Assembly (NCBI GenBank): GCA_013374855.1
Contig: CP055308.1
Location: 272,715 to 336,714 of the forward strand
Source: Candidatus Woesebacteria bacterium
GTDB taxonomy: Bacteria > Patescibacteriota > Microgenomatia > UBA8517
Reading direction: 5' to 3'
Length of the DNA: 64,000 nucleotides
Positions 3,511 to 55,686 of this stretch are shown in pieces. The notes beneath the pieces were generated by a model. That model saw only the letters and a list, made by a program, of their open reading frames with translations. It was not told the origin of the DNA and searched no databases. The position numbers and the translations under genes were made by a program. Positions within the stretch are counted from its first letter, which is position 1; the number at the start of each line of letters is the position of its first letter.

Positions 3511-4835
3511 AGTTTTGTAATTTTTTCCACAGCATGCATTACTGTTGTATGATCTCTTCCTCCTGTTATTCTGCCAACTTCTTGAAGAGGGAGTTGTAAC
3601 TCCGTTCTTAATATGTACATTAGTATTTGACGAGGTAGAGATAATGTTTTGATTCTTGAGTTTCCCAATATTTGTCTTTTTTTTATTGAATATTGTTTAC
3701 ACACAATATCAATGATATCATCAGAACCCACTTTCTTTTTTTCTTTGTTGCCATTTTCCCCCTCCCTTTTTCCAAGAAGATGTTTAATTGTTTCTTCATC
3801 TACAACACTTATATTTTCAAGTTGTATTTTGCTTTGCAGACGAATTAAGAATCCTTCTATTTTTCTTGCTGTATCAAGATTGCCGGCAATAAGCTGGACC
3901 AAACTCATAGGAAGGTTCATTCCCTTTTCTTTTAATTTTATTTGGGTTATGGCGCATCTTAATTCAAAATCAGGTGGGGCAATGTCAACAATAAGCCCTG
4001 CTTCAAAACGACTTCTTAATCTCTCCTCCAGTTTTGAAATGTCAGATGGAGGCTTGTCTGAAGTCATAATTATTTGTCCACCTGACGCAACTATGGCGTT
4101 GAATGTGTGGAAAAACTCTTCTTGGACAGCGTCTTTTCCTGCGATAAACTGAATGTCATCTATTAAAAGTAGGTCTAGTTTTCTGTATTTGTTTCTGAAT
4201 TTTTGGGTTGTTTTATTTCTTATTCCTTCTACAATATCATTTGTAAAATCCTCTCCTGTGCAAAAGTAGACTTTTTTATTTATGTTGTATTTTTTAACTT
4301 TTATTCCCACCGCGTTCATGAGGTGTGTTTTACCAACCCCAACCCCTCCCCAGAGAAACAGAGGGTTATATGAAGTGCCGAGATTTTTGGCAACTGCCTC
4401 GCAAGCTGCCCATGCCATTTGATTTGAGGAAGAGACAGCAAAATTTTCAAATGTAAAAAATGGACGCAGGCGGCAGTTTTTGATTTCTTCAAAAAACTCG
4501 CTGGTGTATTTTTTATTTTCTGCCTTTTCTTTAAACAGAGGAGTCTCAAGACTCTTGTTTTCTTGATTTTCTTGTGTTTTTATCTCAAAGATTATGTCAC
4601 ATTTTTTTTCGGTTATCTTTTCGAGAGTGTCTTGCACCAAGCCGTAATATCTGTTTTCTATAGTATTTTTGGCAAAGGAGGAAGGACAACCTATTTCAAA
4701 AATTAGTCTTCCCTCTTTTTCTTTAATTTGGCTTATGAAAGTTTGGGAAAACCAAGTATTGAAGATTGCCGAGGAAACGGAAACCTTTATGCTTTTGAGG
4801 CAGCCTTGCCAAATTTTTTCTTTATCTACTTCCAT
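3447..4835 (-). CDS. dnaA: Chromosomal replication initiator protein DnaA
   Basis: Walker A GGVGVGKTHLMNA and Walker B LLIDDIQFIAGK are present. The C-terminal helix-turn-helix DNA-binding domain reads ILMYILRTELQLPLQEVGRITGGRDHTTVMHA. Confidence 0.93.
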   Translation of the reverse strand: MEVDKEKIWQGCLKSIKVSVSSAIFNTWFSQTFISQIKEKEGRLIFEIGCPSSFAKNTIENRYYGLVQDTLEKITEKKCDIIFEIKTQENQENKSLETPLFKEKAENKKYTSEFFEEIKNCRLRPFFTFENFAVSSSNQMAWAACEAVAKNLGTSYNPLFLWGGVGVGKTHLMNAVGIKVKKYNINKKVYFCTGEDFTNDIVEGIRNKTTQKFRNKYRKLDLLLIDDIQFIAGKDAVQEEFFHTFNAIVASGGQIIMTSDKPPSDISKLEERLRSRFEAGLIVDIAPPDFELRCAITQIKLKEKGMNLPMSLVQLIAGNLDTARKIEGFLIRLQSKIQLENISVVDEETIKHLLGKREGENGNKEKKKVGSDDIIDIVCKQYSIKKRQILGNSRIKTLSLPRQILMYILRTELQLPLQEVGRITGGRDHTTVMHAVEKITKLASTNVDIREDIEGIKKAIWG

Positions 4836-4924
4836 TTTATTTTGGGGTCTAGGGCAGAAGACACTTGTTAAAGAATATTTAACTATTTATACACAATTAG
4901 TCAACCCCTATTTTTTAGAAGCCT

Positions 4925-8209: not shown

Positions 8210-8648
8210 AAAAATAACAATTAACACTGACGGCGGGGCGAGAGGCAATCCTGGGCCTGCAGCCTGTGCCTTTGTAGCAAGAGAAAACGGAAGGGTTGTT
8301 TGTAAGAAGGGTTTCTTCTTAGGAGAAACAACAAACAATGTTGCAGAATACAGCGGGATAATAGAGGCTTATAGGTGGGTTTTAGAAGGCGGGAAAAATG
8401 TAGAAGAAATTGTTTTTGAAATCGATTCGGAGCTCGTGGTAAAGCAATTAAACGGTTTCTACAGAGTCAAAGACAAAGAATTAATTGTACTTTGGAATAG
8501 AGTTAAAGATATGGAAAAAAAGACAAATGCCAAGGTTTTTTATGTTCATGTTCCAAGAAGTAAAAACAAAGACGCTGATTTTCTTTTGAATTCTGTCCTG
8601 GATGGTTTAAGTATAGTTTCACGTCATCAAAAAACCTCTATCACTTGA
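8193..8648 (+). CDS. rnhA: RNase HI-like ribonuclease H
   Basis: INTDGGARGNPGPAACAFV ... NNVAEYSGIIEAYRWVL ... FEIDSELVVKQLNGFYRVKDKEL ... PRSKNKDADFLLNSVLD carries the DEDD carboxylate pattern of type 1 RNase H. Confidence 0.7.
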   Translation: MANSYRKITINTDGGARGNPGPAACAFVARENGRVVCKKGFFLGETTNNVAEYSGIIEAYRWVLEGGKNVEEIVFEIDSELVVKQLNGFYRVKDKELIVLWNRVKDMEKKTNAKVFYVHVPRSKNKDADFLLNSVLDGLSIVSRHQKTSIT

Positions 8649-19173: not shown

Positions 19174-20973
19174 TCAAAGTTGGCCACCTGTTCCTCTTAA
19201 AAATTTGGCTTGCCATGGACGGTAGTTTGAGTAAAACCTTTTGGAGAATATTTCAATTCCGTCTTTTGTTACTTTATAATCAAACCAGACTTTTGCTCCC
19301 CAAGCCTTTTTTTCTATTTGTTTTATTTGTCCTGCAGGGAGAGTTGGGTCATCTATATATAAATCCTCAGGTGGGGGAGAGGTGGAAGAAATAACTGGCT
19401 TTGATAGATACACTTCCCGCCCGTCTTTTGTCCCATAAAGCTCGAAAACTAGTGTCTTTGATTCATTATCAACCTTTGTTTGTATTAGAATGTGGTTTCC
19501 TGTGTCGTTTTTAAATTTAAAATCAGGTGACGGTTCAAAAACAGTAGCGTCAAGCCCTGGTCCGGCATCTTGTTCATAATAACCAACACGGTATGCATGG
19601 GGATGTCTTTCTATTATGGGTAAACCAGCATTTAGGACAGCCCTGAAAAGCGTGGTGGAGACTTGACAAACTCCACCACCGTCGCCAAGAATCGTTTGCC
19701 CTTCTTTTATTACATAAGCTTGTTGGTACCCTGTTTCTTTTGAGACCTCTCCCAATGTTTTGTTAAAAGAGAAGATTTCTTCCGGTTTAACGAGCACTCC
19801 TTGGAGTCTTGATGAAGCGAGGTTAATGTTGTGAACGCGTGAAGGAGTAGAACCTACAAATCTTGATTTGCCTATTCCTATTAGCTCTTTTATTCCAAGA
19901 TTATTTATTTCTTCTGTTTTGTAGTCGGGTGGTATTCTGACAAAAGGCACCTCCACCTTATATGTTTTTTCCTCTTCCAGCTCCAATTTTTTAAGAGACT
20001 CGATGATTGTCTCTTTTAATTTTTCTAAATCCACAATGGTACCATCTTTTGCGGGTTTGAATTCTTTAACGCGCCCTTCTTCAAAGACAAGAATTGGGTT
20101 TTGGGGTGGTGAATCAAATTCTTTTTTAATCGATTCTGCAAGCAAATTTATTTTTTCTTTATCGTATCCTTCAAAAAAGTCGCTCATCCTTGCTATTTCT
20201 TCGTCGATTATTTCTTTTGCGTAGTTTTCTGAAACAAGAACTAGCTTCTTGCCGATCATTTTTTCTATTCTTTCTCTATATAAAAGCTCGCTTTTTTGGT
20301 CTAAAATAAATTCATCGGAAATTTTGTTAAGTGTAATTGGAGAAAAATCTAAGTTGTAGAATTTTAGATCTAGTTCTTTTTTTATTTTTTCTTTTTTAAA
20401 ATCAATTCCTGCCTTTCCATTTATGATCACTGGTTTTGAGTCTATTATCTGCGCTTTTGGTTTAACGCCTTTTTGGGTTATCTGTTTTTCTATTTCTTCC
20501 AATACTTTTTCTAGTTGTGTATCTTCATAAGATAAAACAGGACGAACTTCTACTCTTTGGAATAGAGAAAGTGGTTGTCTAAAGATGGGAATTCTGTTTT
20601 TCTGAAAGTAAGCATCTTGTGCCATTTTCTTAAAATCAAACACTAGATTTATTTGCCCTGTGTTTATGTAGGCTGATTGGTTGCCTATTTTTATTTCTAT
20701 TTCGCTTGGTATTTTTATCTCTTTTTTCAGTCTTTGTTCTGCTTCATCAACGGTTAAGCCGCCAATATTTACATCTGAGACATAAGTGTTGGGGAGTGTT
20801 CTTTGGTAGAAGACAAAGTAAAAGAAGAGAGGTGGAGATAGGATTATAAATAATGTGGTTAAGATGGTATTTATTGTTGTTTTGATTTTTGTTTTAGATA
20901 CCATTGTCTTGGTTGTTGAATGATTATAGAATAGTATATTAACACAACTGGGGTTTTTGTCTATGGAAACCAA
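19174..20973 (-). CDS. VanW-family protein, membrane-anchored
   Basis: N-terminal TM helix. The C-terminal VanW domain reads ILGDGGGVCQVSTTLFRAVLNAGLPIIERHPHAYRVGYY. Confidence 0.75.
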   Translation of the reverse strand: MVSIDKNPSCVNILFYNHSTTKTMVSKTKIKTTINTILTTLFIILSPPLFFYFVFYQRTLPNTYVSDVNIGGLTVDEAEQRLKKEIKIPSEIEIKIGNQSAYINTGQINLVFDFKKMAQDAYFQKNRIPIFRQPLSLFQRVEVRPVLSYEDTQLEKVLEEIEKQITQKGVKPKAQIIDSKPVIINGKAGIDFKKEKIKKELDLKFYNLDFSPITLNKISDEFILDQKSELLYRERIEKMIGKKLVLVSENYAKEIIDEEIARMSDFFEGYDKEKINLLAESIKKEFDSPPQNPILVFEEGRVKEFKPAKDGTIVDLEKLKETIIESLKKLELEEEKTYKVEVPFVRIPPDYKTEEINNLGIKELIGIGKSRFVGSTPSRVHNINLASSRLQGVLVKPEEIFSFNKTLGEVSKETGYQQAYVIKEGQTILGDGGGVCQVSTTLFRAVLNAGLPIIERHPHAYRVGYYEQDAGPGLDATVFEPSPDFKFKNDTGNHILIQTKVDNESKTLVFELYGTKDGREVYLSKPVISSTSPPPEDLYIDDPTLPAGQIKQIEKKAWGAKVWFDYKVTKDGIEIFSKRFYSNYRPWQAKFLRGTGGQL

Positions 20974-22561
20974 TCAAAATCAAAAGAACAGCCAAGGACA
21001 AGCCAGTTCGGGGCAGGGTTTGCAACAGCATCCACCCATGGTGGGTGCTGAGACTAGTAGCCCTCTTTATGAATCTTCAATGTCTCAACTTGATGTGCCG
21101 GGTGTTTATTTTGGTTCTTCTGCAGTGTTTCAATCTCCAAATGAGGCAAAAAACGAGCAAATTCAAAAACCAAGTCAAACAACCCTGTCTCAGGATAAAG
21201 TTGTGTTCGATGAGGAAAAAAGTAAAAGCACAACCGCGACTCCACCTCCTCCCAGAAGAAAAATTCCATTGTTCTTTGTAGTAATGGTATTGACTTTAGT
21301 AGTCGTTCTTTTGGTGGGAGTGGTTCTTTTTTTTGGTGGGCGGTTTGGTAAAAAAACGGTTGAGACAAAAAAAATAACATGGTGGAATCTTTGGGAAGAT
21401 GATGGAGTTGTGAGATCTTTGATTCAGGAATATGAAACCAAAAATCCAAATGTGAAAGTTGAATATTTGAAGCAATCTCCTCAGGATTATCGTGAGAGAT
21501 TGGTGAACTCTCTTGCCAAAGGTACAGGGCCTGATATTTTTGTGTTTCATAATACATGGGCACCACTTTTGACCCGCGATTTAGACCGTGTTCCTGCTTC
21601 GGTTGCCAGTTCAGCTGATTTTGCTCGTGATTATTATTATGTTATTTCTTCTGATCTGACCGTTGGATCAGGGTTGGTGGGGTTGCCTTTGGGTTATGAT
21701 GCCCTGACTTTATTTATTAATGAAGATCTTTTTAAAGAAGCAAATGTAGACCCTCCAACTACTTGGGTTGAGTTGAGAGATCGTGCAAAGATTTTGACTA
21801 AGGTGGAAAATGGCAAAATTGTCCAAGCCGGTGTGGCCCTGGGAAGAACAGAAAATGTTGATCATTGGCAAGAGATTGTTGGATTAATGTTGCTTCAAAA
21901 TGGTGTTAATCTTTCCAATCCAGAACCGGATCTGATTGAAAATGCTCTTTTATTTTTTACTGCTTTTTCGAGAGTTGATAAAGTTTGGGATGAGACCCTT
22001 CCTCCGTCTACAGCAGCTTTCGCAGGAGGGAAGCTGGCTATGTATTTTGGTCCTTCGTGGCGCTATTTTAATATAAAGGAGGCAAACCCATCACTTAATT
22101 TTAGAACAGTTCCTTTGCCGCAGGTGCCGAAGGAAGACCCTGAAGAGCCAGATATTTCGTATGCAACTTATTGGGTGCAAGGTGTTTGGGCGAAAAGTTC
22201 GAATAAGGATTTGGCTTGGGATTTTTTGAAATTTATTTCTTCCCGCGAGTCTCTTGAGAAGATGTATAAGCAAGCTTCGCTTTATCGGGGATTTGGAGAA
22301 CCTTATCCAAAGGTAGAAATGGGAAATATGTTGCTTGAAGATCCAATTGTTGGATCTGTTGTAAAGATGGCGCCATATGCTCGCAGTTGGTATTTGGCAT
22401 CACGCACTTTTGATGGCCCAACGGGTATTAACTCGCAAATTGGTAAGTATTTTGAGGATGCTATAAATGCAGTGAATGCTAATGAAGATATAAAAGACGC
22501 TATTGAAACCTTGATTTTAGGTATAAAACAGGTTTTGGTTCAGTATGGCCTTTCAAAGTAA
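20957..22561 (+). CDS. ABC transporter extracellular solute-binding protein (family 1, sugar-type)
   Basis: An N-terminal low-complexity region and TM/signal anchor are followed by a SBP_bac_1-like domain (KITWWNLWEDD...EYETKNPNVKVEY...GTGPDIFVFHNTWAPLL). Confidence 0.7.
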   Translation: MSMETNQNQKNSQGQASSGQGLQQHPPMVGAETSSPLYESSMSQLDVPGVYFGSSAVFQSPNEAKNEQIQKPSQTTLSQDKVVFDEEKSKSTTATPPPPRRKIPLFFVVMVLTLVVVLLVGVVLFFGGRFGKKTVETKKITWWNLWEDDGVVRSLIQEYETKNPNVKVEYLKQSPQDYRERLVNSLAKGTGPDIFVFHNTWAPLLTRDLDRVPASVASSADFARDYYYVISSDLTVGSGLVGLPLGYDALTLFINEDLFKEANVDPPTTWVELRDRAKILTKVENGKIVQAGVALGRTENVDHWQEIVGLMLLQNGVNLSNPEPDLIENALLFFTAFSRVDKVWDETLPPSTAAFAGGKLAMYFGPSWRYFNIKEANPSLNFRTVPLPQVPKEDPEEPDISYATYWVQGVWAKSSNKDLAWDFLKFISSRESLEKMYKQASLYRGFGEPYPKVEMGNMLLEDPIVGSVVKMAPYARSWYLASRTFDGPTGINSQIGKYFEDAINAVNANEDIKDAIETLILGIKQVLVQYGLSK

Positions 22562-22570
22562 CTTTTATCT

Positions 22571-23401
22571 TTGAAAAAATTATTACCAGAAGAAAAAGCT
22601 TCGATTTTCTATCACAGTTTCTTTGATTATCCTCTAACGGAGGAAGATCTTTTAAAGTGGGCTGTTGGAAGAAAATTTTTATCGCTTTTTCCAAAAAAGA
22701 TAAATGTTATTCAGAAAGATGGTTTTTATTTTCTTCCAGAAGAAAAGTCCAGTATTTCTTGGCGGCAAAAAAGAGAAAAGTTTTCTGAAAGAAAGATCAA
22801 GATAGCAAAAAAGGCAGCTTCTTTGATTTCTCTTTTACCTACCGTCAAACTTGTTGCCATAACAGGATCGCTTGCGATGAGAAATGCAGATATTGATTCG
22901 GATATTGACTTGATGATTGTAACAAAGAGTGGTTTTCTTTGGACAACAAGGATATTTGTTTATCTTTTCCTTTTTGCCTTTGGTTTTCCTTTCAGAAGGT
23001 TTGGCAGTAGAGAAGTAAAAGATAAACTCTGTCTTAATATTTGGCTTGATGAGGGGAAACTTGTTTGGCATAAAAAAAATATTTTTACTGCGCATGAAGT
23101 TTTGCAAATCGTGCCGCTTTTAAACAGAAACTTTACCTACGAGCAGTTTTTGTCTGCTAATTTGTGGGCTTTTGATTATTGGCCAAATGCGGCAGACAAA
23201 AGAAAGTTGAAATGGACGGCTTTTTTAAAATTGAAAATTGACTTTTTTTCTTATATCTGGGCGCCGTTTGAGCTTTTGGCTTTTCTTTTGCAGAGACTTT
23301 ATATGCTGGGCAAGATTGGAAGAGAGACGGTTTCTTTGGATAGGGCAATATTTCACCCCATTGATCTTTCGGATAGAATTTTGCAAAAGCTACATACATA
23401 G
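22571..23401 (+). CDS. Minimal nucleotidyltransferase (Pol-beta superfamily) domain protein
   Basis: ITGSLAMRNADIDSDIDLMIV matches the GS-x9-13-DxD nucleotidyltransferase signature. Confidence 0.5.
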   Translation: MKKLLPEEKASIFYHSFFDYPLTEEDLLKWAVGRKFLSLFPKKINVIQKDGFYFLPEEKSSISWRQKREKFSERKIKIAKKAASLISLLPTVKLVAITGSLAMRNADIDSDIDLMIVTKSGFLWTTRIFVYLFLFAFGFPFRRFGSREVKDKLCLNIWLDEGKLVWHKKNIFTAHEVLQIVPLLNRNFTYEQFLSANLWAFDYWPNAADKRKLKWTAFLKLKIDFFSYIWAPFELLAFLLQRLYMLGKIGRETVSLDRAIFHPIDLSDRILQKLHT

Positions 23402-23412
23402 GAGCGGGAGAG

Positions 23413-23456
23413 TGGAAGAGTAGAAGTTGAAGATTTGATTTATGATTTATGAATTA
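23413..23456. repeat. Direct repeat copy A (about 44 bp), paired with 25118-25161. It contains internal tandem TGATTTATGA units.
   Basis: TGGAAGAGTAGAAGTTGAAGATTTGATTTATGATTTATGAATTA is identical at 23413-23456 and 25118-25161. A short GAGTGG is shared upstream of each copy. Confidence 0.7.
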
Positions 23457-23462
23457 TGATTC

Positions 23463-24158
23463 ATGATTTATGAACTTATAAGAATCAAGAACGAGCTGGG
23501 TATGAAAACCGATTCGTTAGAGTCTTATCCTGCCTGTTTTTTCGATACCCAAGAAACTAGAGATTTTACTGGTAGTCGAATGTGCAATGCAGGGAAGACG
23601 GCATGTACCATTGGATTTGATGGTAGTATAAGGCCTTGCTCTCATGCTATTCAGACCTATGGATCTATGTTAGATGCTGGCGGGCTATATGAAGCGTGGA
23701 TAAACATGCAGCCTTGGAGAACAGAGGAATATATTCCAGAAAGTTGTAATCAATGTCCTGAAAAAAACTTGTGTAGAGGAGGATGTAGAACAGAAGCTTT
23801 TGCTGTATATGGGAGTCTCAAAGCTCCAGACCCTTACTGTAATTTGTCAAACACCGTCATACCTAGATCCTCTACTAATAGAGAGAGGGTTGATTTTTCA
23901 GCAGAATATTACTTTCACCCAGCCACTAAATACAGAGAGGAAAATTTTGGTGGGATTCTTTTTGTGACTCCCGTAAGATGGGTTGGAGTAACACATCAGC
24001 TGTATAATTTTTTTACAGAAAACAAAGTGAACAGATTTAGACTTAGTGCTTTGGCAAAATCTCTAGGACTAGAGGATAATAATCAAATTGAGACAACAGC
24101 CGAAATGTTAATTCGAAAGACTATATTACAGAAAGGGGGTGATAAGAATGACAAGTGA
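23463..24158 (+). pseudogene. Orphan SPASM/twitch-domain fragment, the C-terminal part of a radical SAM peptide maturase with the radical SAM core missing
   Basis: CNAGKTACTIGFDGSIRPC matches the start of SPASM domains (C-x-AG ... DG-x-V-x-PC). Downstream CNQCPEKNLCRGGCR gives the auxiliary cluster cysteines. No CxxxCxxC is present. An in-frame TGA lies 6 nt upstream of the ATG inside the direct repeat. Confidence 0.55.
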
Positions 24159-24330
24159 AAGAGAAACTAATCCAACCCCTGGAATAGTTGAAATGGTAGT
24201 TGAGGAAAGTGACAAGATTGATGAAAATCAACAACAGAGCTGTTATGAGTCTTGTGATGCAAGTGGTTGTGATTGTTTTGACTCAGGTGATTGTTTTGAT
24301 TACTGTGACAGGGTGCCGGACCCAGATTAA
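24148..24330 (+). CDS. Acidic six-cysteine small peptide, 60 aa from the ATG at 24148 or 63 aa from a GTG at 24139. It looks like a RiPP precursor.
   Basis: The sequence is MTSERETNPTPGIVEMVVEESDKIDENQQQSCYESCDASGCDCFDSGDCFDYCDRVPDPD. It has an acidic leader-like N-terminus. The C-terminal core pattern is C-x3-C-x4-C-x-C-x5-C-x4-C. A GGGGG lies 8 nt upstream of the ATG. It overlaps the 3' end of the SPASM fragment. Confidence 0.45.
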   Translation: MTSERETNPTPGIVEMVVEESDKIDENQQQSCYESCDASGCDCFDSGDCFDYCDRVPDPD

Positions 24331-24378
24331 AAACTTAAACTTTTAAAATAGTGTTAAATAAAAGTAAAAGACAGATCT

Positions 24379-25041
24379 ATGAAAATAATAGTAGATTATT
24401 CTTTGGATCTTGATACTTGGAATTACCTACGTTCTGTTTATAGGTTTGTGTGGTATATTCATGGCAGAAGCAACCTTCAAAAAAAGCTTCTTTCGGCTCT
24501 TCCAGAAGATCTGGTTGCTGACCTAAAAAGTACAAAAGATGAGAAACAAGCAAGGAAGACTATTAAAAAATTTCTGCTTAAAAATATAGAAGTTAGGAAG
24601 AAAAAATACTTCCTTATTGCTCAAAATATAGAATCTGCATGGGAAAAAGAGAGTTTTGAAATAGAGACTAAGCTGGAAAAATTGTACGAAAACAAGATTC
24701 CATTTAGGTCAATAAAAATCTTTCTTTCTACTTTACCCATCTGTCCTTACAACTTTGAGAAAAAATGGATAATGGTATTTGGCGAGACCAATACCAAAAA
24801 ACAGCTTCAAATTATAACTCACGAACTTAACCATTTTATGTTCTACTACTATTTTGGAGAAATAAAGAATGAATTGGGGAAAGAAAAATTTGAATCATTA
24901 AAAGAAGCTCTAACAGTGTTTACCAACCCGGAAGAGAAGGGATATCCTAATCAAAAGAGAATAAGAGATTGGCTGTCAAAACAAAAGCGAAGGTCAATCC
25001 CAGAAATAATCAAAAGCGGTAGGTGGAAAGAATATCTTTAA
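24379..25041 (+). CDS. Hypothetical protein with an HExxH motif (putative zincin-like metallopeptidase)
   Basis: QIITHELNHFMFYYYFGEIKNE has HELNH plus a downstream Glu. There is no signal peptide. It is the last gene inside the repeat-bounded cassette. Confidence 0.4.
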   Translation: MKIIVDYSLDLDTWNYLRSVYRFVWYIHGRSNLQKKLLSALPEDLVADLKSTKDEKQARKTIKKFLLKNIEVRKKKYFLIAQNIESAWEKESFEIETKLEKLYENKIPFRSIKIFLSTLPICPYNFEKKWIMVFGETNTKKQLQIITHELNHFMFYYYFGEIKNELGKEKFESLKEALTVFTNPEEKGYPNQKRIRDWLSKQKRRSIPEIIKSGRWKEYL

Positions 25042-25117
25042 TTCCGACAACCAAAATATCAATTTTAAAGTCTAATGATCTATTAGCTTACGAAAATAAT
25101 AAATAAGAGTGGGGGAT

Positions 25118-25161
25118 TGGAAGAGTAGAAGTTGAAGATTTGATTTATGATTTATGAATTA
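25118..25161. repeat. Direct repeat copy B, paired with 23413-23456
   Basis: Identical 44-mer. It is followed by another GATTTATGAATTTATTC unit. Confidence 0.7.
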
Positions 25162-25276
25162 GGATTTATGAATTTATTCTAGAATCTTAATTCACTTTGT
25201 TCTTTGTTCTACTATTGTCAATGGTTAATGGTTAATGGTCAAATGTCATGCTGAATTCATTTTTCGCATCTCTTAC

Positions 25277-25390
25277 CTTAATTATAAACAAATTACAAAT
25301 TCCAAATCACAAGCTCCAAACAAATTCCAATTAACAAATTACAAACAATACACAAATTCCAAATTACAAAACATCCTCCTTCGCCAAGGC
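25277..25390. repeat. Degenerate tandem A/C-rich repeats with the unit ACAAATTCCAAAT(T/C)ACAA inside a 650-bp non-coding region
   Basis: ACAAATTCCAAAT-like units recur 3 or more times with CAAATTACAA variants. Flanking microsatellites are ATGGTTA x2.5 at about 25230, ATTCACT x3 at about 25518, CTTTGTT x3-4 at 25582-25610 and CAGTTGG/GTTGGATGTTGG repeats at 25630-25690. Confidence 0.5.
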
Positions 25391-25465
25391 TACGGAAGGG
25401 CAAGCAAAAATGGTAATTAACTTTTAACAAGGATAGGAGAAACAATATTAAACAAGTCTCCTAAT

Positions 25466-25497
25466 AAGGTCTGGCCTTTAAGTAAAGGCCAGACCTT
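25466..25497. repeat. 32-nt near-perfect palindrome (15-bp stem, 2-nt loop)
   Basis: AAGGTCTGGCCTTTA-AG-TAAAGGCCAGACCTT. There is no T-tract on either side, so it is not a classic intrinsic terminator. Confidence 0.6.
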
Positions 25498-25705
25498 TAT
25501 AAAATCAAATTCCAAATCACTATTCACTATTCACTGTTTACAAATTTGCTTTCTACCTGATGCTAGATGCTTGCTACCATTCTTTTCTTTGTTCTTTGTT
25601 CTTTGTTCTATCTTTGTTGTTGGTTGGATGTTGGAAGTTGTTTGTTCGCTTTAGCGTTGTTGTCAGTTGGCAGTTGGATGTTGGCAGTTCCGTAAGGAGT
25701 GCCTC

Positions 25706-25807
25706 TTGACAAGTTTTATTTGTTTTTTATAATAGCACTTGGGGTTTAGCAATGCTAAAAGCAAAGTGCTAAATGCCTCTTGACAAAACAAAATTCTTTT
25801 TTAAAAT
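25706..25807 (+). promoter_or_regulatory. Two sigma70-like promoters upstream of groES, each embedded in a repeated GCCTCTTGACAA sequence
   Basis: P1 is TTGACA 25706-25711, 16 nt, then TATAAT 25728-25733. P2 is TTGACA 25780-25785, 16 nt, then TAAAAT 25802-25807. Confidence 0.45.
25732..25772 (+). promoter_or_regulatory. CIRCE-like (HrcA operator) inverted repeats, two overlapping copies with 9-nt spacers
   Basis: TTAGCAATG-N9-AAGTGCTAA at 25746-25772 against consensus TTAGCACTC-N9-GAGTGCTAA. An overlapping ATAGCACTT-N9-CAATGCTAA lies at 25732-25758. Both sit between P1 and P2 of groES. Confidence 0.55.
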
Positions 25808-25819
25808 TTTTTCTAGTCT

Positions 25820-26122
25820 ATGGGAAGCAAAAAATTAAATTTAAAACCAACACCAGGCTATCTTTTAATAGAACCTGCTTTGGCTGAAAAAAAGACTGAG
25901 TCTGGTATTTACCTTCCTGATACTTCAGAGGAAAAACCCCAAAAAGGTAAAGTTTTAGCAGTAGGGGCAGATGAGGTTCTTGATTCTGGAAAGACGAGAA
26001 AATCTCCAGCTAAAGTTGGTGATGAAATAATTTACAAAAAATGGGGTGGTAATGAAGTTAAGATTGATGGCAAGGAATATATCTTTGTTAAGTTTGAGGA
26101 TGTTTTGGCAGTAATTGGCTAA
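25820..26122 (+). CDS. groES: Co-chaperonin GroES
   Basis: 100 aa with [13 protein letters not shown] ... KGKVLAVG ... [11 protein letters not shown], the canonical Hsp10. Confidence 0.95.
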
Positions 26123-27740
26123 TATGGCAAAACAACTTAAATTTTCAGACGAAGCTCGTGTTGCCCTGATGAGGGGAATTGATACTGTTGCAAAAGCAGT
26201 TGTTACTACACTTGGCCCCAAAGGTAGGAATGTCGCTTTGGATAAAAAGTGGGGTGCGCCCAATGTTGTTCACGATGGGGTAACTGTTGCTAAAGAAATA
26301 GAATTAAAAGATCCTTTTGAAAATATGGGAGCTCAGCTTGTAAAGGAAGCTGCAGACAAAACAAATGATATTGCTGGTGATGGTACGACAACAGCAACTC
26401 TTCTTACTCGTGAAATTGCAGCTCTTGGTATGAAGCATATTACTGCAGGAGCAAATCCTATGATAGTTAAGAAGGGTATAGAAAAGGCAGTTTCTGCAGT
26501 GGTTGAGGAATTAAAGAGAATTGCAAAACCAATAAAGAACAAAGAAGAAATAACACAAGTTGCAACAATCTCTGCAGGAGATGAGACAATTGGTGCCAAA
26601 ATAGCCGAAGCTTTAGATGGTAAGGATAGGGTTGTTACCGTTGAAGAGGGTAAGAGCCTTGAACTTGAAATAGAGTATAAAGAAGGAATGGAGTTTGACC
26701 ATGGTTATGTTTCCCCATACTTTGTTACAAACCCTGAAAAAATGGAAGCGGAGGTTACGGATGCTTACATTCTTTTGACTGACAGAAAAATTTCTGCAAT
26801 TTCTGATTTATTACCCTTCCTTGAAAAGTTTATTAAAGTAAGCAAAAATCTGGTTATTATTGCAGATGATATAGAGGGAGAGGCTTTAGCTACCTTGGTT
26901 GTTAATAAGCTTAAAGGTACTTTCAATGTTTTGGCTGTTAAAGCTCCAGGCTTTGGTGATAGAAGGAAGGAAATGCTTGAAGATATAGCAGTTCTTACTG
27001 GAGGAGTAGTAATTTCAGAAGACACTGGAAGAAAACTTGAGTCGGTAGAGATTGAGGATTTGGGGAGAGCTGACAAAGTATGGGCTGATAAAGACAGTAC
27101 CAGAATAATTGGTGGCAAAGGAGAAAAGGAAGCAATAGAGAAAAGAATAAGTCTTATTAAGCGACAAATTGAGGAAGCAGATTCTGATTTTGATAAAGAA
27201 AAACTTCAAGAAAGGTTAGCAAAACTTTCAGGTGGTGTTGCTCAAATTAATGTTGGGGCAGCTACAGAAGTTGAGCTTAATGAGAAAAAAGAGAGAGTGA
27301 AAGATGCTGTTGAGGCAACTAAAGCTGCAATTGAAGAAGGCATTGTCCCGGGTGGTGGAATAGCTCTTTTGAGAGCAAGAAATGTTCTTAAAGATTTGAT
27401 TGAGAAGGAAAACGTGGAGGACGAAAAGATAGGTATAAAAATTGTTTATGATGCACTTGAGCAACCTGTTCGTTACCTAGCAAGAAACTCAGGAGAAGAC
27501 GATGGTTATGTGGTGAGAAGAATTGAAGAATCAAAAGAGCCAGATTTTGGTTATAATTCTCTAACTGGCGAGTTTGGTTCTATGCTTAAGTTTGGAATAT
27601 TAGATCCTTTGAAGGTTACTCGTTCAGCGTTACAAAATGCAGCATCTGTGGCGATGATGGTCTTGACGACTGAGGCTTTGGTAACAGATATTCCAGAAGA
27701 GAAGAAAGAAACCCCAGGTAACCCCGGAATGGATTATTAG
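26115..27740 (+). CDS. groEL: Chaperonin GroEL
   Basis: [25 protein letters not shown] ... DGTTTATLL ... GGGIALL. It ends with the GNPGMDY tail and overlaps groES by 8 nt. Confidence 0.97.
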
Positions 27741-28414
27741 TCTGAACGAAGTAGGGTCATAGGATCAAAGGGTATTCCATCTTTTCTTACCTCGAAGTGA
27801 AGATGATCTCCAGTTGCTCGACCAGTTGAACCCATGTTGGCTATTTTTTGACTAGTTGTTACTTCGTCTCCCACTTTAACAAATATTTTTGAAAGATGTG
27901 CATAAAGAGAGGTTATTCCGTTTCCATGATCAATAAGAATTGCATTTCCGTATCCTGTTTTTGAAAATTGGACTCCTTTTACTTTACCTTTGGCAAATGG
28001 GTAAATTGGATCTCCTGTAATACCGTCAAAATCAATTCCCGGATGGAAGAATTTGTACCCTTGAGTTATTTTTATCTGATCAACTGGATACCGAATTGAT
28101 TTTTGGGTAGTTGTTGAAGAATCGTGTGTTGTTACCACCACTGTTTGAGGATCAATTAAGTTTGGATTCTTGATGTCGGTTTGAGGTAAAACAGAGCTTG
28201 CAACAAGAATTAGTGGTAAGTTTGTGCCAAGAATTTTTTTTATTCTTTGGTTTTCAAAGATAAGCCTAAAATACCTTGAAATTTTAGAACCCTTTTTAAT
28301 ATTTTTAATAACATCTGTGTTTGGAATAAGCGGCTCAATAGATTCTCCCCGCCTTTTAACAAGTGTTATATCAAGGCGTTTCTTGAGGGGCAGATTTATT
28401 GAAAGTTTTATCAT
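27737..28414 (-). CDS. M23-family peptidase (LytM-like), membrane-anchored
   Basis: HPGIDFDG (HxGxD), then LYAHLS, then [12 protein letters not shown] (HxH) are intact M23 motifs. The N-terminus has a single TM helix. Confidence 0.8.
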
Positions 28415-28449
28415 AAGGCTCCTTATTTTTTTAAGGAGTTTTGGGGCAG

Positions 28450-28477
28450 TAAAAAAGCTCGCATATTTTTGCGAGCT
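28450..28477 (-). terminator. Intrinsic-terminator-like hairpin read on the minus strand, just upstream of the M23 gene start
   Basis: AGCTCGCA-tatttt-TGCGAGCT is an 8-bp stem. On the minus strand it is followed by TTTTTT, which is AAAAAA at 28450-28455 on plus. Confidence 0.35.
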
Positions 28478-28820
28478 AGGAAGTATTATAGCAAAAATTA
28501 GGCCAAAAAGTCAAGTTTTAGATCTTTGCTTTATTTTTTAGTTTCCTTTTGTAAACACTTTTTTGTTAACTAAGTCATGAGTGAAGGGGATTCCAAGTGT
28601 ATAAAGTGCAACACTTTTTGCTTCAGCACAAACAGGATGATTAAAAAATAATTTTGTATTACAATTGCAGGTGAGGGTGTTCTGTATTAATAGTCTGCTA
28701 TTTTAACACCCTAATGTCTAAAAATATTTCACCAATAGACAAAAATATAAACAAATCATTTACTATACGCGATTTGCCAAAAGAAGAAAGACCACGCGGA
28801 AGGTTGATTAAATTTGATGG

Positions 28821-29360
28821 TCAATCTCTCTTTCTCCAGAGATCTCTTGCATCCTTAAACATTACTTCGCCTACCTCTCCCCATTTTATGTACTCCGTAA
28901 TTTTATCAGCAGGTACAAATTTCCTTTCCCATGTTTTACCACTTGCAGGATCTGGTGATTGGGGCAAAATTTCCTCAACTTCACAAATACACCTGACTTG
29001 GTAAAAGACACTCCCCTCTTGTTTGTTTGGGTTGTCTGGAAACTCAACCCTTTGTACGCCTAGGACTTTTATATTTCTAACTTTGATGTCTACCTCTTCT
29101 AATAGTTCTCTTGAGAGGGTATTTTCCACGCTTTCTCCAATTTCTGGTTTCCCACCAGGAAGTTGCCATTTATTGTCTGTTTCTTCTCTACAGATAAGAA
29201 TCTCGCCCTTTTTATTAAAACAAATACCGTAGACTTGAGTTATTGGCTTAAACCTTTCTACAGAATCTGTTTCTATCCAACTCATAGTTACTTTTTGCCC
29301 GTTAGAAACATATGATGACTTGGGGTATTTTTTCATTCTAGTTGATATTATATGGAACAC
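28821..29360 (-). CDS. NUDIX hydrolase
   Basis: Nudix box GGKPEIGESVENTLSRELLEEVDI (Gx5Ex7REUxEExGU). Confidence 0.8.
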   Translation of the reverse strand: MFHIISTRMKKYPKSSYVSNGQKVTMSWIETDSVERFKPITQVYGICFNKKGEILICREETDNKWQLPGGKPEIGESVENTLSRELLEEVDIKVRNIKVLGVQRVEFPDNPNKQEGSVFYQVRCICEVEEILPQSPDPASGKTWERKFVPADKITEYIKWGEVGEVMFKDARDLWRKRD

Positions 29361-29677
29361 AAACTAGGGTCAACTAGGGGTTTAATGATAGAATAAGTTT
29401 ACGAAATTAAAGCTCACAGTTTTTGATTTTTAAGCCTTCTTGTCAAGCTAGACACAATATAAATTTTTTGTTAAATTAGTTAAACCTAGAAAAGATTTTT
29501 TAGTTTTTTTAAACTACACTTTTTGGTTGCTTCTGAATTTTTTACTCAACGAAAGCGAGAAATAGTTTCAAAGATGCGATATAATATCGGCAGAGATTGA
29601 TGATGGGCAAAAGTGGATACAATTTGAAACATTAGAATAATGGATGTTTTAGCTATCAATTTATTTAGGTAATAACT

Positions 29678-32600
29678 ATGTTAAATAATTCTGATTTAAC
29701 ATTTATCACAAATGAAAAAGGCCAAAATCTTCTTGAGAGATTTAAGGTGTTGATTAAAGATACCGAATTTTTTGATGTTTTGGTTGGTTATTTCTACACA
29801 AGTGGTTTTTACGCGTTGTATAAATCTTTAGAAAAGGCAAAAAGGATTAGGATCCTAATTGGTATTGGTACTGGCAAAAGAACTGTAGAATTGATAGATA
29901 AGGCTAAACAATCAGAATTGCAATTTTCTCACGCGGAGACAAAAGAACATTTTTCAAATTTGCTTGTTAATGAGATGGAGAATTCACAGGATAGCAAGTC
30001 GGTGGAGGAAGGAGTAATGAAATTTTTGGAATGGTTGCAAAACGGGAAATTAGAAATAAAAGCTTACCCAACAGAAAATATCCATGCTAAGTTATACATT
30101 ATGTCCTTTGCTGAAGGGGACCGCGATGTAGGGCGAATTATTACTGGTTCAAGCAATTTTACGCAAGCTGGTTTGGTGGATAATTTTGAATTTAATGTAG
30201 AATTAAAAAATCGTGCTGATTATGAATTTGCCAAAGCTAAATTTGAGGAACTCTGGAAACATGCTGTAGATGTAAAGGATAAATATATACAAACGATCAA
30301 AGAAAGAACTTGGTTAAATAATACTATTACTCCTTATGAACTTTATCTTAAATTTCTATATGAGTATTTTAAAGATGAACTTCTTCAAACAGATGAAGTC
30401 ATCTTCAAATACGTTCCGTCAGAATTTAAACGATTAGAATATCAAGAGCAAGCAGTATTAAACGCAAAAAAAATTCTTGAAGAATACGGTGGTGTTTTTA
30501 TTTCTGATGTTGTTGGGCTTGGTAAAACTTATATTTCTGCCATGCTTGCTAATCAACTTGATGGCAGAAGTTTAGTCATAGCGCCACCAGTGCTTTTAGA
30601 AAAAGATAATCCTGGTTCCTGGCCAAATGTATTTTCTGATTTTAGAGTACCGGCAGATTTTGAATCTCTTGGCAAATTGGATTATCTCATTCGGCGCGGC
30701 ACCGAAAAATATAGGAACATTTTCATTGACGAGGCACATCGTTTCAGAACGGAGTCAAACATAACTTTCGAAAAACTAGCTCAAATTTGTCGAGGTAAAA
30801 GAATCATTCTTGTCACAGCTACCCCTTATAACAATTCTCCAAAAGATATTCTAAGTCAAATCAAACTTTTTCAAAAAACTAAGAAAAGTACAATTCCTAA
30901 TTTACCAAATTTGGAGATCTTTTTTTCCAAACTTGAAAAACGCCTCAAAAATTTGGATAGATATAAAAACAGTGCTAAATACATTGAAATCTCTAAAGAA
31001 AATGCAAAAGAAATTAGGGAGAAGGTTCTTAAATATATTATGGTAAGAAGAACTAGGACAGAGATTGAAAAATACTTCAGTGATGATTTGAAAAAACAAA
31101 ACCTAAAGTTTCCTAGAGTAGAAGACCCGGAGCCGGTTTTTTATGAGTTAGATGACGAAGAAGATAAAATATTTAATCAAACGATTGAGCTCATTACCAA
31201 AAAATTTAAGTACGCTCGCTATATGCCTTTACTTTACTATAAGGGAAAACTTACTCAACCAGAAGAACTATCTCAAAGGAATATGGGAAGATTTATGAAA
31301 ATTCTTCTGGTTAAGCGGCTGGAGAGCAGTTTTTATGCCTTTAGAAAGAGCATTGAGCGATTTATTATTTATTACGAGAAGTTTTTTAAAGAATTTGAAG
31401 AAGGTAATGTCTATGTGAGTAAAAAATATACCTACAAAATCTTTGAACTACTTGAAAATGACGATGAAGAAAAGATTCAACGCTTAATAGAAGAAGATAA
31501 AGCTAGGAAATACTCGGCTAAAGATTTTAGAAAAGAACTTAAGTTAGATTTAAAACAGGATCTGGAAACTTTAAAAGATATCCAAAAACTTTGGCAAAAT
31601 ATTAAACGTGATCCAAAACTGCTCAAATTTATTGAAATGCTTTCTTCTCATCCAATTTTAAAGAAACAGAAATTAATTATTTTTACTGAATCGAAAGAAA
31701 CTTGCGATTATCTTTATAAAAATTTAGAGAAAAAACTTCCTGATCAAGTTTTATCCTATTCAGGTACTTCAAGCACTGTTATTAGAGAGAAAGTTATTGA
31801 AAATTTTGATGCTCGAGCTCACTTTCCTAAAGATGATTACCGGATATTGATAAGTACAGAGGTTCTATCGGAAGGTGTTAACCTTCATCGTTCCAATGTG
31901 GTGATTAACTATGATATTCCATGGAACCCAACTCGATTAATGCAAAGAGTAGGTCGCATTAACCGAGTTGATACTTCTTTTGATAAAATTTATGCTTTTA
32001 ATTTTTTTCCCACCAAACAATCTAACAGTTTAATAAAACTAAAAGAAGCCGCTGAGGCAAAAATTCATACCTTTATGACTTTACTTGGCGATGATGCTAG
32101 AATTCTTACTGAAGGGGAGCCTATTGGTTCACATGAATTATTTAATCGTTTGGTTTCCAAAAAAACGATCACAGGCGAAGATGAAAAAGAGGAAAGTGAA
32201 CTTAAATATTTACGAATTATTAAAAATATCCGTGACAATAATCCTGATCTATTTTCCAAAGTTAAGCAATTACCTAAGAAAGCAAGAACTGCTAGAAAAA
32301 ATAATCAGAAATCTAATTCACTTATCACCTATTTTCGAAAAGGCAAGCTTCAAAAATTCTTTATTGTCAGTAAAAGAGAACCTCAGGAAATAGATTTTAT
32401 TTCAACAGCCAAGTTACTAGAAGCACATTCAGATACGAAGCGCGAAAAACTTGGTCAAGATTTTTATGAATTGCTTGAAAAAAACAAAAAAGCATTTGAA
32501 TTGGTGACTATTGAAGACATCCCGGAATTAAAAATGAGAGGTGGTAGAGATGCGGCAACTCAGATGTTAAAAATATTAAAAGCGTTAAAAGATTTGCGAA

Positions 32601-54651: not shown

Positions 54652-55686
54652 TTGGGTATTAGTATTTTTTCAAAACGGGTGCTAGAATATCTAAGACTTT
54701 TCTTTTTCTTGAATATGGAATTAAATGTATTTTTGATTTTAGTAAGCATTTCTTTCTTGGTGGCTACTTTCATTATAAACAAAAAACTTTCTGAAATTCT
54801 AAAAAAATCGTCTCCTTCAGAGGAATTACTTGAGTATTTGCGCACCACCAACGCCCGTCTTGATAAGCAAAATGAATCTTTAAACATCTCAACCCGTGCA
54901 CTAAACGAGCGATTGGACAAAGCTGCTCAAGTTATATCTTCGGTTAGAGAAAGCATTGTACAAGTTAGTGAAATTGGAAGAAGCATGAAGGAACTTCAAG
55001 AATTTATCAGCTCGCCAAAGCTGAGAGGAAATTTGGGAGAACATGTTCTAAAGGAGATATTGGGTCAGTTTTTACCTAAAAATTCTTTCAATTTGCAATA
55101 TACTTTCAAGACTGGCGACAAAGTTGATGCGGCGATAAGAACGCAAGCTGGGATTGTCCCTATTGATTCAAAATTCCCGATGGAGAATTTTAGAAAAATG
55201 ATGTCGACTGAGGGCGAGGAGAAAGATCACTTTGCCAGTCTTTTTGAGAAGGATGTCAAAAAGCACATAGACACTATTTCCAAAAAGTATATTTTGACAG
55301 AGGAGGGAACGATTGATTATGCACTAATGTATATCCCATCTGAAGCTGTTTATTATGAGGTAGTTAACAATCCTTCTCTTTTTGAATATGCTTCGGAAAA
55401 AAGGGTTTTACCTGTTTCTCCAACAACTTTTTATGCATACATTAAGGCAATACTTATGAGTTTTGAAGGCCAAAAGATAGAGGAGGAGGCAAAAAGAATC
55501 CTTTTGTCCCTAAAAGCTATAAAAAGAGATTATGATAAGGTAGAGAGCGAGCTGTCTGTTTTACAAAGGCACATTGTCAATTCTTTTAATATGATAGGAA
55601 ATGTAATGTCTTCTTTTGTTCGTATGGGGCAGAAAATCAGTCTTACTCAAAGTTTGGGTGAAAAAAGAAAGGAACTGCCTTCTTGA
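54652..55686 (+). CDS. rmuC: DNA recombination protein RmuC. A more likely start is the Met at 54715, MELNVFLIL.
   Basis: N-terminal TM helix, a coiled-coil region, then the conserved RmuC C-terminal domain (GNLGEHVLKEILGQFLP ... GIVPIDSKFPMENF ... YIPSEAVYYEV). Confidence 0.75.
   Translation: MGISIFSKRVLEYLRLFFFLNMELNVFLILVSISFLVATFIINKKLSEILKKSSPSEELLEYLRTTNARLDKQNESLNISTRALNERLDKAAQVISSVRESIVQVSEIGRSMKELQEFISSPKLRGNLGEHVLKEILGQFLPKNSFNLQYTFKTGDKVDAAIRTQAGIVPIDSKFPMENFRKMMSTEGEEKDHFASLFEKDVKKHIDTISKKYILTEEGTIDYALMYIPSEAVYYEVVNNPSLFEYASEKRVLPVSPTTFYAYIKAILMSFEGQKIEEEAKRILLSLKAIKRDYDKVESELSVLQRHIVNSFNMIGNVMSSFVRMGQKISLTQSLGEKRKELPS

Follow-up and report, generated by a model that had tools for sequence, protein, structure and literature searches.

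Between a nucleotidyltransferase-like (NTase) gene and groES, contig CP055308.1 of a Candidatus Woesebacteria bacterium carries a long spacer filled with heptanucleotide arrays and a perfect 32-nt palindrome, which we analyzed within a 64-kb window of this contig (64,000 nt; contig positions 272,715–336,714; all coordinates below are window positions). Our analysis makes it reasonably probable that positions 25099–25701 are non-coding junction DNA, a copy of a lineage-specific family of dispersed heptanucleotide arrays, lying within a recent insertion of ~2.3 kb at the NTase|groES junction. The data show an insertion at a hotspot, flanking direct repeats, a truncated gene at the repeat border, a specificity for period 7 and a mosaic relatedness among dispersed clusters. 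In practical terms, the spacer is not to be taken for a hidden gene, an RNA or a prophage attachment (att) site.

A lineage-specific insertion at the NTase–groES junction

The gene order SBP–NTase–groES–groEL–...–M23 is kept across Woesebacteria and many Microgenomates, where the gap between NTase and groES usually measures 40–160 nt. Ranked by GroEL identity, the relatives of the window's clade are the loci L092 (97%), L096 (96%), L095 (95%), L097 (93%) and L099 (91%). The NTase-to-groES distance is 112–146 nt in L095, L097 and L099 as well as in L093, and in L095 the NTase stop codon TGA lies inside the −35 hexamer TTGACA of groES. These loci show the ancestral junction without the spacer, where the NTase stop abuts or overlaps the groES −35 box. 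L092 and L096 carry a different insert of 3.4 kb at the junction, encoding a protein of 531–589 aa and an M20 peptidase, and other inserts of 0.5–4.7 kb occur there in at least 10 more distant loci. On the groES side, the block 25702–25830 (128–131 nt, including the first 11 bp of groES) exhibits 85–92% identity in L092, L093 and L095 and is also present in L096, L097 and L099. Conservation begins at 25702, the right edge of the region initially noted, and to the left of it nothing is conserved in any relative compared. As the close relatives lack the spacer, the conserved block starts at 25702 and unrelated inserts occupy the junction elsewhere, the stretch ~23399–25701 is a lineage-specific ~2.3-kb insertion at a junction that was hit repeatedly and independently. 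Searches of phage and plasmid collections yielded no match for the whole insertion and no viral contig match.

The original prediction had proposed a recombination hotspot or the end of a degenerate mobile element, a reading that conservation and collinearity of the region in relatives would have contradicted. The comparison found the spacer absent from close relatives and clearly neither conserved nor collinear, and the proposal gains support from the 2.3-kb insertion, the unrelated inserts in relatives, a 76-nt flanking repeat and a homologous cluster at the L095 breakpoint.

Direct repeats and a truncated gene

The insertion comprises two modules, a gene cassette followed by the repeat-rich spacer, each opening with a copy of a 76-nt direct repeat termed DR-A. 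The two copies, which flank the 1.7-kb cassette, are 89% identical and contain an exact 44-nt core (23413–23456 = 25118–25161); the similarity runs past this core with scattered mismatches, and DR-A itself is simple sequence repeat (SSR) DNA. A DR-A-like array also follows the NTase stop in L091 (84% NTase identity), whose contig ends there, and the core gave 0 matches in IMG/VR. The features of the cassette and its borders, including open reading frames (ORFs), are:

23394–23469, + strand: DR-A copy 1; starts at the NTase stop and comprises an AAGAGNNG-type 8-mer array, GTTGAAGATT and a TGATTTA array
23463–24158, + strand: 5′-truncated radical-SAM/SPASM maturase fragment (TIGR04085, E=1.4e-11, residues 41–126); begins inside DR-A copy 1
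24139–24330, + strand: small Cys-rich ORF of 63 codons (…CYESCDASGCDCFDSGDCFDYCDRVPDPD); 3′ part conserved in other CPR genomes (alignment and blastn)
24379–25041, + strand: 220-aa hypothetical protein conserved in the candidate phyla radiation (CPR), with an HELNH (HExxH-like) motif and a weak SprT-like match; last cassette gene
25099–25174, + strand: DR-A copy 2; opens the repeat-rich module and overlaps TGATTTA x5.1

The SPASM ORF aligns only to residues ~230–340 of full-length maturases and to residues 268–358 of the 394 of PqqE. Because the alignment is restricted to the C-terminal ~100 residues of maturases, the ORF is a 5′-truncated fragment; it retains the SPASM domain and C-terminal extension only, with the ~230-residue radical-SAM core gone. 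The 220-aa protein belongs to a CPR-wide family of 75 homologue clusters in variable genomic contexts; a search of viral contigs for the protein gave no match, and the ~80 nt upstream of its gene are co-conserved with homologues in other CPR genomes. By its gene content, the cassette (23463–25041) looks like a broken cluster of the type that makes ribosomally synthesized and post-translationally modified peptides (RiPPs). Pfam and NCBIfam scans of the ORFs in 20957–28414, together with the gene table to 32 kb, revealed no integrase, transposase or recombinase. The inverted-repeat search returned only weak 10–19-nt pairs, not the terminal inverted repeats plus target-site duplication of a miniature inverted-repeat transposable element (MITE) or insertion sequence (IS).

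Several minor observations concern the cassette and its edges. DNA identity of 71–85% with L084 4875–5001 and L086 4886–4937 extends over the 3′ portion of the Cys-rich ORF together with the leader before the 220-aa gene (24252–24378), which suggests a two-gene unit or a conserved leader. The contexts of the homologues are otherwise unrelated, with an rve_3 transposase adjoining in L086 and LAGLIDADG ORFs in L090. Three places have the short motif TA(A/G)G(G)AG(C/T)G(G/C): the left insertion edge (23399–23408), the beginning of DR-A copy 2 (25103–25112) and the end of the insertion next to the promoter block (25691–25701). It may be a signature of two successive insertions, resembling a target duplication, although it is too short to evaluate, as is the candidate duplication AGGAG(C/T)G at both insertion edges. 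In L086, which carries a homologue of the 220-aa protein, heptamer-like arrays at 8300–8470 lie directly upstream of a tRNA-like sequence, and ATTGATTTATAATTTATGAATTA in this cluster shows 88% identity over 34 nt to the window DR-A, possibly by chance low complexity.

Heptanucleotide arrays of the spacer

The region had been described as an unusually long non-coding stretch of 650 bp. The long gap itself stands, being the longest true ORF-free gap of the window, between the 220-aa ORF and groES (25042–25819); its length, however, is 778 bp, of which the last 118 bp are conserved promoter/operator sequence and not repeat DNA. An apparent second-longest gap of 695 bp at 54921–55615 was rejected, as it holds a 344-aa ORF. 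Tandem Repeats Finder (TRF) and the inverted-repeat search recovered all of the microsatellite repeats listed in the original prediction, as well as the 32-nt palindrome, at their predicted positions. From left to right the spacer contains:

25141–25177, + strand: TGATTTA x5.1 (TRF, period 7), just left of the spacer start initially named (25162)
25195–25239, + strand: CTTTGTT and AATGGTT heptamer arrays (TRF), with copy 1 of the internal repeat DR-B at 25195–25226
25195–25210, + strand: CTTTGTT x2.3 (TRF, period 7)
25220–25239, + strand: AATGGTT x2.9 (TRF, period 7, 100% matches)
25286–25370, + strand: ACAAATT/CCAAAT-type array (TRF, period 7 x12.7; alternatively read as super-periods of 25 nt x3 or 32 nt x2.7)
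25371–25465, + strand: non-repetitive, relatively GC-rich core left of the palindrome, with small hairpins CCTTC...GAAGG and AGGAGA...TCTCCT
25466–25497, no strand: perfect palindrome AAGGTCTGGCCTTTA/TAAAGGCCAGACCTT, 15-nt arms and 2-nt spacer, no U-tract
25503–25535, + strand: AAATTCCAAATCAC motif, then a TCACTAT x2.7 array (25517–25535; TRF, 100%)
25585–25689, + strand: T/G-rich arrays TTCTTTG x3.6, GTTGG(A/T) units and GTTGGCA x4.4 (TRF), with DR-B copy 2 inside
25585–25609, + strand: TTCTTTG x3.6 (TRF, 100%)
25659–25689, + strand: GTTGGCA x4.4 (TRF)

Thus, seven period-7 TRF arrays of different units stand in series in non-coding DNA between 25141 and 25689. Half of the period-7 TRF rows of the window (8/16) fall within 23436–25689, which makes up 3.5% of its length, and the remaining rows are short T-rich low-complexity runs, except for AAAATTG x2.1 (23227–23241) and AAAGAAC x3.1 inside groEL. 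The three perfect complex heptamer runs of at least 2.5 copies in the window all lie within 25220–25609. DR-B, the internal 32-nt direct repeat (25195–25226 and 25594–25625), reached a local alignment score of 37 vs 20.0 ± 2.8 in shuffled sequence. Since the arrays, the unique perfect stem described below and the concentration of period 7 exceed chance, the spacer is both unusual and genuine. A larger imperfect palindrome centred on the 32-nt one was considered and rejected, as the complementarity between the left A/C-rich and the right T/G-rich arrays scored 24 vs 20 ± 3 in block shuffles.

The reading frame 25235–25420, originally given as the only ORF, does translate into repeats; it is not the sole ORF, as three others are present at 25293–25445 (−), 25560–25709 (+) and 25567–25695 (+), the four measuring 42–61 codons. 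The spacer ORFs translate repeats, and the two internal ones searched against Pfam gave no family match.

Related clusters in other Microgenomates

We compared array periods in 0.94 Mb of Microgenomates loci. For TRF arrays with a score of at least 40 and complex units, period 7 accounted for 29 arrays vs 0 in shuffled sequence, whereas period 8 had 8 and period 6 none; for perfect runs with three or more copies the numbers were 10 for period 7 (0 shuffled) and 1 each for periods 6 and 8. Period-7 arrays are ~5-fold enriched outside ORFs. The serial architecture of different units is also found in L062, L024, L040 and L095 and in groES–groEL spacers.

Two loci link these clusters to each other. 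L062 contains three clusters with common segments of 18–33 nt at 91–100% identity, including the same imperfections, and a 600-bp cluster in L095 has seven motifs of 11–16 nt in common with the window spacer, in both orientations: TACAAACAATACACAA, GATTTATGATTTA, TTCTTTGTTCTA, TGTTGGAAGTTG, CAAATTCCAAA, ACAAATTACAA and TTAACTTTTAAC. In the window, ACAAATTACAA, CAAATTCCAAA and TACAAACAATACACAA belong to the ACAAATT/CCAAAT-type array (25286–25370), and TTCTTTGTTCTA and TGTTGGAAGTTG to the segment 25585–25689. Five of the seven occur in no other locus of ~1 Mb, CAAATTCCAAA and TTAACTTTTAAC have a few isolated matches elsewhere, and the full set is present only in L095. The near-identical copies in L062 and the motif sharing with L095 indicate dispersed families instead of independent slippage events. 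Inside the 64-kb window, only DR-A, with its two copies, is repeated at a second place. A second strain with this spacer did not turn up.

The L095 cluster lies downstream of the M23 promoter and not upstream of groES, at the point where collinearity ends (L095 reverse complement 4296 = window 28519). With the L095 cluster at the end of synteny and the window cluster at an insertion, a cluster marks the border between core genes and variable DNA in both genomes. On the reverse complement of L095 (FWPU01016427.1), 4300–4900 holds AAGTCAA x7.3, its complement TTTTGAC x7.3, AGAACAA, TAAATTC and GTTGGAA, and a 26-nt repeat that contains the hairpin GTCAGCC-CGA-GGCTGAC. A GC-rich hairpin was likewise seen in the clusters of L040 and L062, not in those of L024 and L058, a small sample for judging it as a constant cluster part. 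Heptamer units common to the window and distant relatives (AATGGTT in L070, TTGTTGTCAGTTGG in L062) were set aside as compatible with chance, given ~100 arrays and ~1200 unit classes.

Further arrays were noted within genes and operons. In L017 (4396–4725) and L018 (4816–4854 and 5415–5445), intact NTase ORFs include arrays of ~4.5 copies at places where the protein is variable, and one array in L017 stands in for the homologous NTase segment with the length unchanged. The groES–groEL spacer holds heptamer arrays in L064 (5938–5994), L051 (5920–5983), L049 (5938–5990), L017 (5905–5992) and L040 (1405–1590), often as an array followed by its reverse complement (e.g. ATGAGAA… / …TTCTCAT), which would form a long hairpin in the operon mRNA. 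Across ~1 Mb of loci (L002–L099), the length distribution of the complex period-7 arrays has a secondary peak at 30–34 nt (32/100 arrays), corresponding to ~4.4–4.7 copies.

Assembly check

The possibility that the spacer is an assembly artefact or a chimera created by repeats is next to negligible. An independent assembly of SRR6186653 from Logan agrees with the window at 100% identity over all overlapping parts, 25377–32122 and 23427–25147. Its contigs do break at DR-A and at 25377 and leave 25148–25376 uncovered, as an artefact might; the ends at 23442, 23427 and 25147, however, are exactly those predicted for a 44-nt exact repeat at k=31, and together with the full identity they argue against an artefact. 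In addition, the same NTase-to-DR-A junction occurs in L091, from a different sample, and similar clusters are found in many independent assemblies. The Logan contig L001 starts at 25377, just past the ACAAATT-type array, although no 31-mer of the window is repeated at this point; the start may reflect heterogeneity within the population or a related copy in another part of the genome.

The palindrome

Apart from the palindrome, the 64 kb contain no perfect stem of at least 13 bp, and 30 block shuffles gave stems of up to 12 bp. Folded as an RNA hairpin, the palindrome reaches −23.7 kcal/mol on the plus and −24.2 kcal/mol on the minus strand (z-scores −6.2 and −5.3), stronger than the two best canonical terminators of the window (−19 and −12.8 kcal/mol). 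It is situated 425 nt past the last ORF stop and ~210 nt upstream of the −35 box of the groES promoter P1, and its 3′ tails are TATAAAAT (+) and ATTAGGAG (−). The perfect stem and the lack of a T-tract both agree with what had been reported for it: a scan of 23300–26000 returned 0 terminator-like sites, with no U-tract directly 3′ of the stem. No second copy exists in the window (matches with up to 3 mismatches are at chance level), in ~1 Mb of related loci, in IMG/VR or in the JGI metagenomes.

The palindrome shares with an intrinsic bidirectional terminator a perfect, GC-containing stem whose folding energy exceeds that of the best canonical terminators in the window, an A-rich 5′ and a U-containing 3′ flank on both strands, and a position behind a set of genes and ahead of a promoter. 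It differs in lacking a proper U-tract (UAUAAAAU, UAUUAGGA), in its distance from the last stop and in a stem of 14–15 bp, longer than typical. Likewise, repetitive extragenic palindromes (REP), bacterial interspersed mosaic elements (BIME) and MITE-type repeats resemble it as intergenic palindromes in repeat-rich non-coding DNA associated with rearrangement, whereas the present palindrome is single-copy in all sets searched and has no recognizable terminal inverted repeats or target-site duplication. With 0 further copies in these sets, a dispersed REP/BIME-like family was rejected.

Origin of the spacer

If the spacer is a copy of a dispersed array family within a recent insertion, single arrays would grow and shrink through replication slippage in a 7-nt register, and the perfect arrays and the perfect palindrome would be recent products of slippage and template switching. 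Cluster copies at different loci would supply identity tracts (44 nt exact here) for homologous (RecA-type) or illegitimate recombination, and recombination on clusters could insert, duplicate and delete accessory DNA beside core genes. Campbell-type integration would leave DR-A at both sides of the cassette, and the 44-nt core could equally serve to delete it. Recombination on repeat copies would thus explain the truncated radical-SAM gene that starts in a repeat as well as the cassette bracketed by direct repeats. In the weakest step of this explanation, the strong palindrome would block read-through from the inserted genes into the promoter controlled by HrcA and its operator CIRCE (controlling inverted repeat of chaperone expression), a role made plausible by the strong hairpin between the two; we rate it about even with that of a neutral inverted duplication.

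Several points weigh against this origin from a dispersed family. No terminal inverted repeats, target-site duplication or associated enzyme that could account for cluster spread were found, and the relationship between the window and L095 is mosaic, not collinear, as the order of the motifs differs. In relatives, 32 of 67 arrays lie inside ORFs, so the arrays are not purely intergenic junk. The inspected sequence comprised 64 kb from the source genome and 5.8 kb from L095, so that multi-copy status in the source genome is suggested by DR-A and by the analogy with L062, and array instability within populations is presumed. An insulating role of the palindrome is conjecture, since it has no U-tract, lies far behind the last ORF and does not resemble the two best canonical terminators.

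A purely local history, rather unlikely in our view, would have the arrays and the palindrome arise in situ after one 2.3-kb insertion, whose non-functional 3′ part decayed and was overwritten by slippage, with neither a dispersed family nor a role in recombination. The perfect short arrays do look young, local duplications are nested (DR-B, the 25/32-nt super-periods and a 74-nt promoter duplication), most of the spacer has no second copy in the 64-kb window, and heptamer slippage is the published default explanation (PMC4679880, PMC4692102). Such a history leaves unexplained, however, that a cluster at another locus, in L095, has seven of the 11–16-nt motifs, among them the non-repetitive TACAAACAATACACAA, that the three near-identical L062 clusters have the same imperfections and that DR-A is a true duplication including non-repetitive sequence; a tblastx comparison of the spacer with ~1 Mb of related loci detected no decayed coding remnant. 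Quite improbable is a site-specific integrative element with DR-A as attL/attR, the palindrome as recombinase-binding site and the recombinase encoded elsewhere, although direct repeats with an exact 44-nt core surround the cassette, different cargo occupies the same junction in different lineages and the palindrome is perfect and devoid of a U-tract. Neither the cassette nor its neighbours encode a domain of an integrase, transposase or recombinase, no tRNA constitutes the junction, the similarity of DR-A beyond the core with scattered mismatches is that of an ordinary duplication, the junction inserts of L092 and L096 show neither DR-A nor the palindrome, and one cargo gene is truncated. Lying ~300 nt from DR-A and found nowhere else (window, ~1 Mb of loci, IMG/VR, JGI metagenomes), with no integrase or transposase nearby, the palindrome does not bear out the suggestion of the original prediction that it serves as the recombination site of an att-like element.

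We regard it as very improbable that the spacer acts as an upstream regulatory element of groESL, for instance by bending the DNA, by a spacing that varies with phase or as a site for a repressor. It is located immediately upstream of the best sigma-70 match (12/12) in the 60 kb scanned, and SSRs upstream of promoters give phase variation in other bacteria (PMC4679880). The arrays, however, are outside the −35/−10 spacer and the 5′ untranslated region, the palindrome is remote from the −35 box, and relatives with 91–95% GroEL identity have the promoter/CIRCE block against the NTase stop or against unrelated DNA, with nothing required upstream. A structured non-coding RNA, which had also been suggested, or a small protein is hardly credible. 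Folding z-scores of −2.9 to −3.5 for spacer segments of 190–526 nt and the ORFs of 42–61 codons might point in this direction; the whole-region folds, however, surpass shuffles by a small margin only, and the palindrome hairpin alone (about −24 kcal/mol) accounts for the excess stability, with long-range arm complementarity not above shuffles. No Rfam family reaches its gathering score in the spacer (best 30.4 bits vs a threshold of 60), the sole gathering-level match of the window being tRNA-Cys, and since the spacer is not conserved in any relative and has no homologous sequence there, covariation support is impossible, which also counts against an RNA. As for a protein, the ORFs translate repeats and the two searched belong to no family.

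An extension of the dispersed-family origin, which we hold to be unlikely, would see the heptamer clusters as active, self-propagating junction elements, copied between loci by a mechanism in a 7-nt register and serving as recombination substrate for loading and unloading cassettes, with arrays of a preferred size of ~30–34 nt also invading coding regions and groES–groEL spacers. CPR/Patescibacteria genomes are usually described as streamlined and repeat-poor. The present data indicate that Patescibacteria can carry dispersed heptanucleotide clusters like those of cyanobacteria, which here and in L095 sit at gene-order breaks between relatives of 95% GroEL identity. Should genes be gained and lost on these clusters as substrates, a simple, enzyme-independent genome plasticity would be open to organisms with few mobile-element genes. 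The clusters also account for recurrent contig breaks in CPR assemblies.

Relation to known heptamer systems

Short tandemly repeated repetitive (STRR) heptanucleotides are found in heterocystous cyanobacteria (Calothrix/Nostoc/Anabaena), mostly in intergenic regions and at multiple loci. STRR sequences are not known to have an established function. The window cluster is STRR-like in its tandem 7-nt units, in the serial order of several different units and in its mostly intergenic location. The recurrence of the same units at multiple loci of a genome would be a further likeness, suggested for the source genome by DR-A and by the analogy with L062. Differences are the host, here a Woesebacteria-like CPR bacterium, the short arrays of about 2.5–5 and up to ~13 copies, and the AT-rich units, which are probably unrelated in sequence to STRR1–3.

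Intergenic assemblages of TAACTGA and multiple other heptamers have been reported from Microcystis, Elizabethkingia, Gramella and Aequorivita (MacGregor 2015, PMC4679880). There, relatives keep the gene neighbourhood with short repeat-free spacers, contigs often end in repeats, and the repeats were proposed to take part in gene rearrangement (PMC4679880). The window shares with these assemblages the long intergenic region full of several kinds of heptamers, the absence of the repeats in relatives and the contig breaks; in contrast, its spacer contains no TAACTGA units, its arrays are not immediately upstream of start codons, and the cluster forms part of a defined insertion, which includes a truncated gene and 76-nt flanking direct repeats. 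According to PMC4679880 and PMC4692102, Mrazek et al. 2007 described a heptanucleotide excess among long simple sequence repeats (LSSR) of prokaryotes; slippage is the explanation given there for the general excess. Similarities to the LSSR are the over-representation of period 7 vs 6 and 8, the slippage-prone arrays and the intergenic bias, whereas the Mrazek work, as presented in these summaries, consists of genome statistics and not of dispersed mosaic clusters with common imperfections, and CPR genomes do not figure in it. A full-text literature search retrieved no paper linking heptamer repeats with Patescibacteria.

By unit size, serial order and over-representation, the spacer is a heptanucleotide SSR cluster of the STRR-like/LSSR type. 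Its likeness is to the cyanobacterial heptamer-repeat clusters and not to genes, RNAs or phage attachment sites. The locus is a clear, previously undocumented CPR example of a repeat class that has long been known without a mechanistic explanation, and here it is linked with a well-defined insertion.

The groESL control block and neighbouring genes

The conserved genes on both sides and the elements between the spacer and groES are:

22571–23401, + strand: NTase gene (Pfam NTP_transf_2); conserved left neighbour, synteny in ~50 loci
25702–25819, + strand: groESL control block with P1, two CIRCE-like operators and P2, distinct from the repeat DNA
25706–25733, + strand: promoter P1, TTGACA-16-TATAAT; 12/12 sigma-70 match, the sole perfect match in the 60 kb scanned
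25732–25758 and 25746–25772: overlapping CIRCE-like operators with 4 and 3 mismatches, respectively, vs a TTAGCACTC-N9-GAGTGCTAA-like inverted repeat
25780–25807, + strand: promoter P2, TTGACA-16-TAAAAT, sigma-70-like
25820–26122 and 26124–27740, + strand: groES and groEL, conserved right neighbours

The groESL control region starts only at 25702. Inverted repeats between promoter and groES, as for a CIRCE/HrcA operator, are present, and homologous ATAGCACTC-N9-GAATGCTAA sites exist in most relatives. As the promoter/CIRCE block stands directly against the NTase stop in relatives, this arrangement indicates that the spacer would be dispensable for groESL expression. The control region 25700–25807 is a 74-nt tandem duplication (TGCCTCTTGACA…TATAAT / TGCCTCTTGACA…TAAAAT), and the two overlapping operators have the central half-site in common, an arrangement kept in L092, L093, L095, L096, L097 and L099. 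Transcription from P2 would yield a nearly leaderless groES mRNA.

Among GTDB genomes, GroEL is best matched in metagenome-assembled Woesebacteria genomes, at 79–81% identity, and both GroEL and GroES were singletons in the cluster look-up. The NTase diverges much faster than its neighbours, with 61–65% identity where GroEL shows 95–97% and SBP 88% (window vs L092, L095 and L091), and the closest NTase is that of L091, from another sample, at 84% identity.

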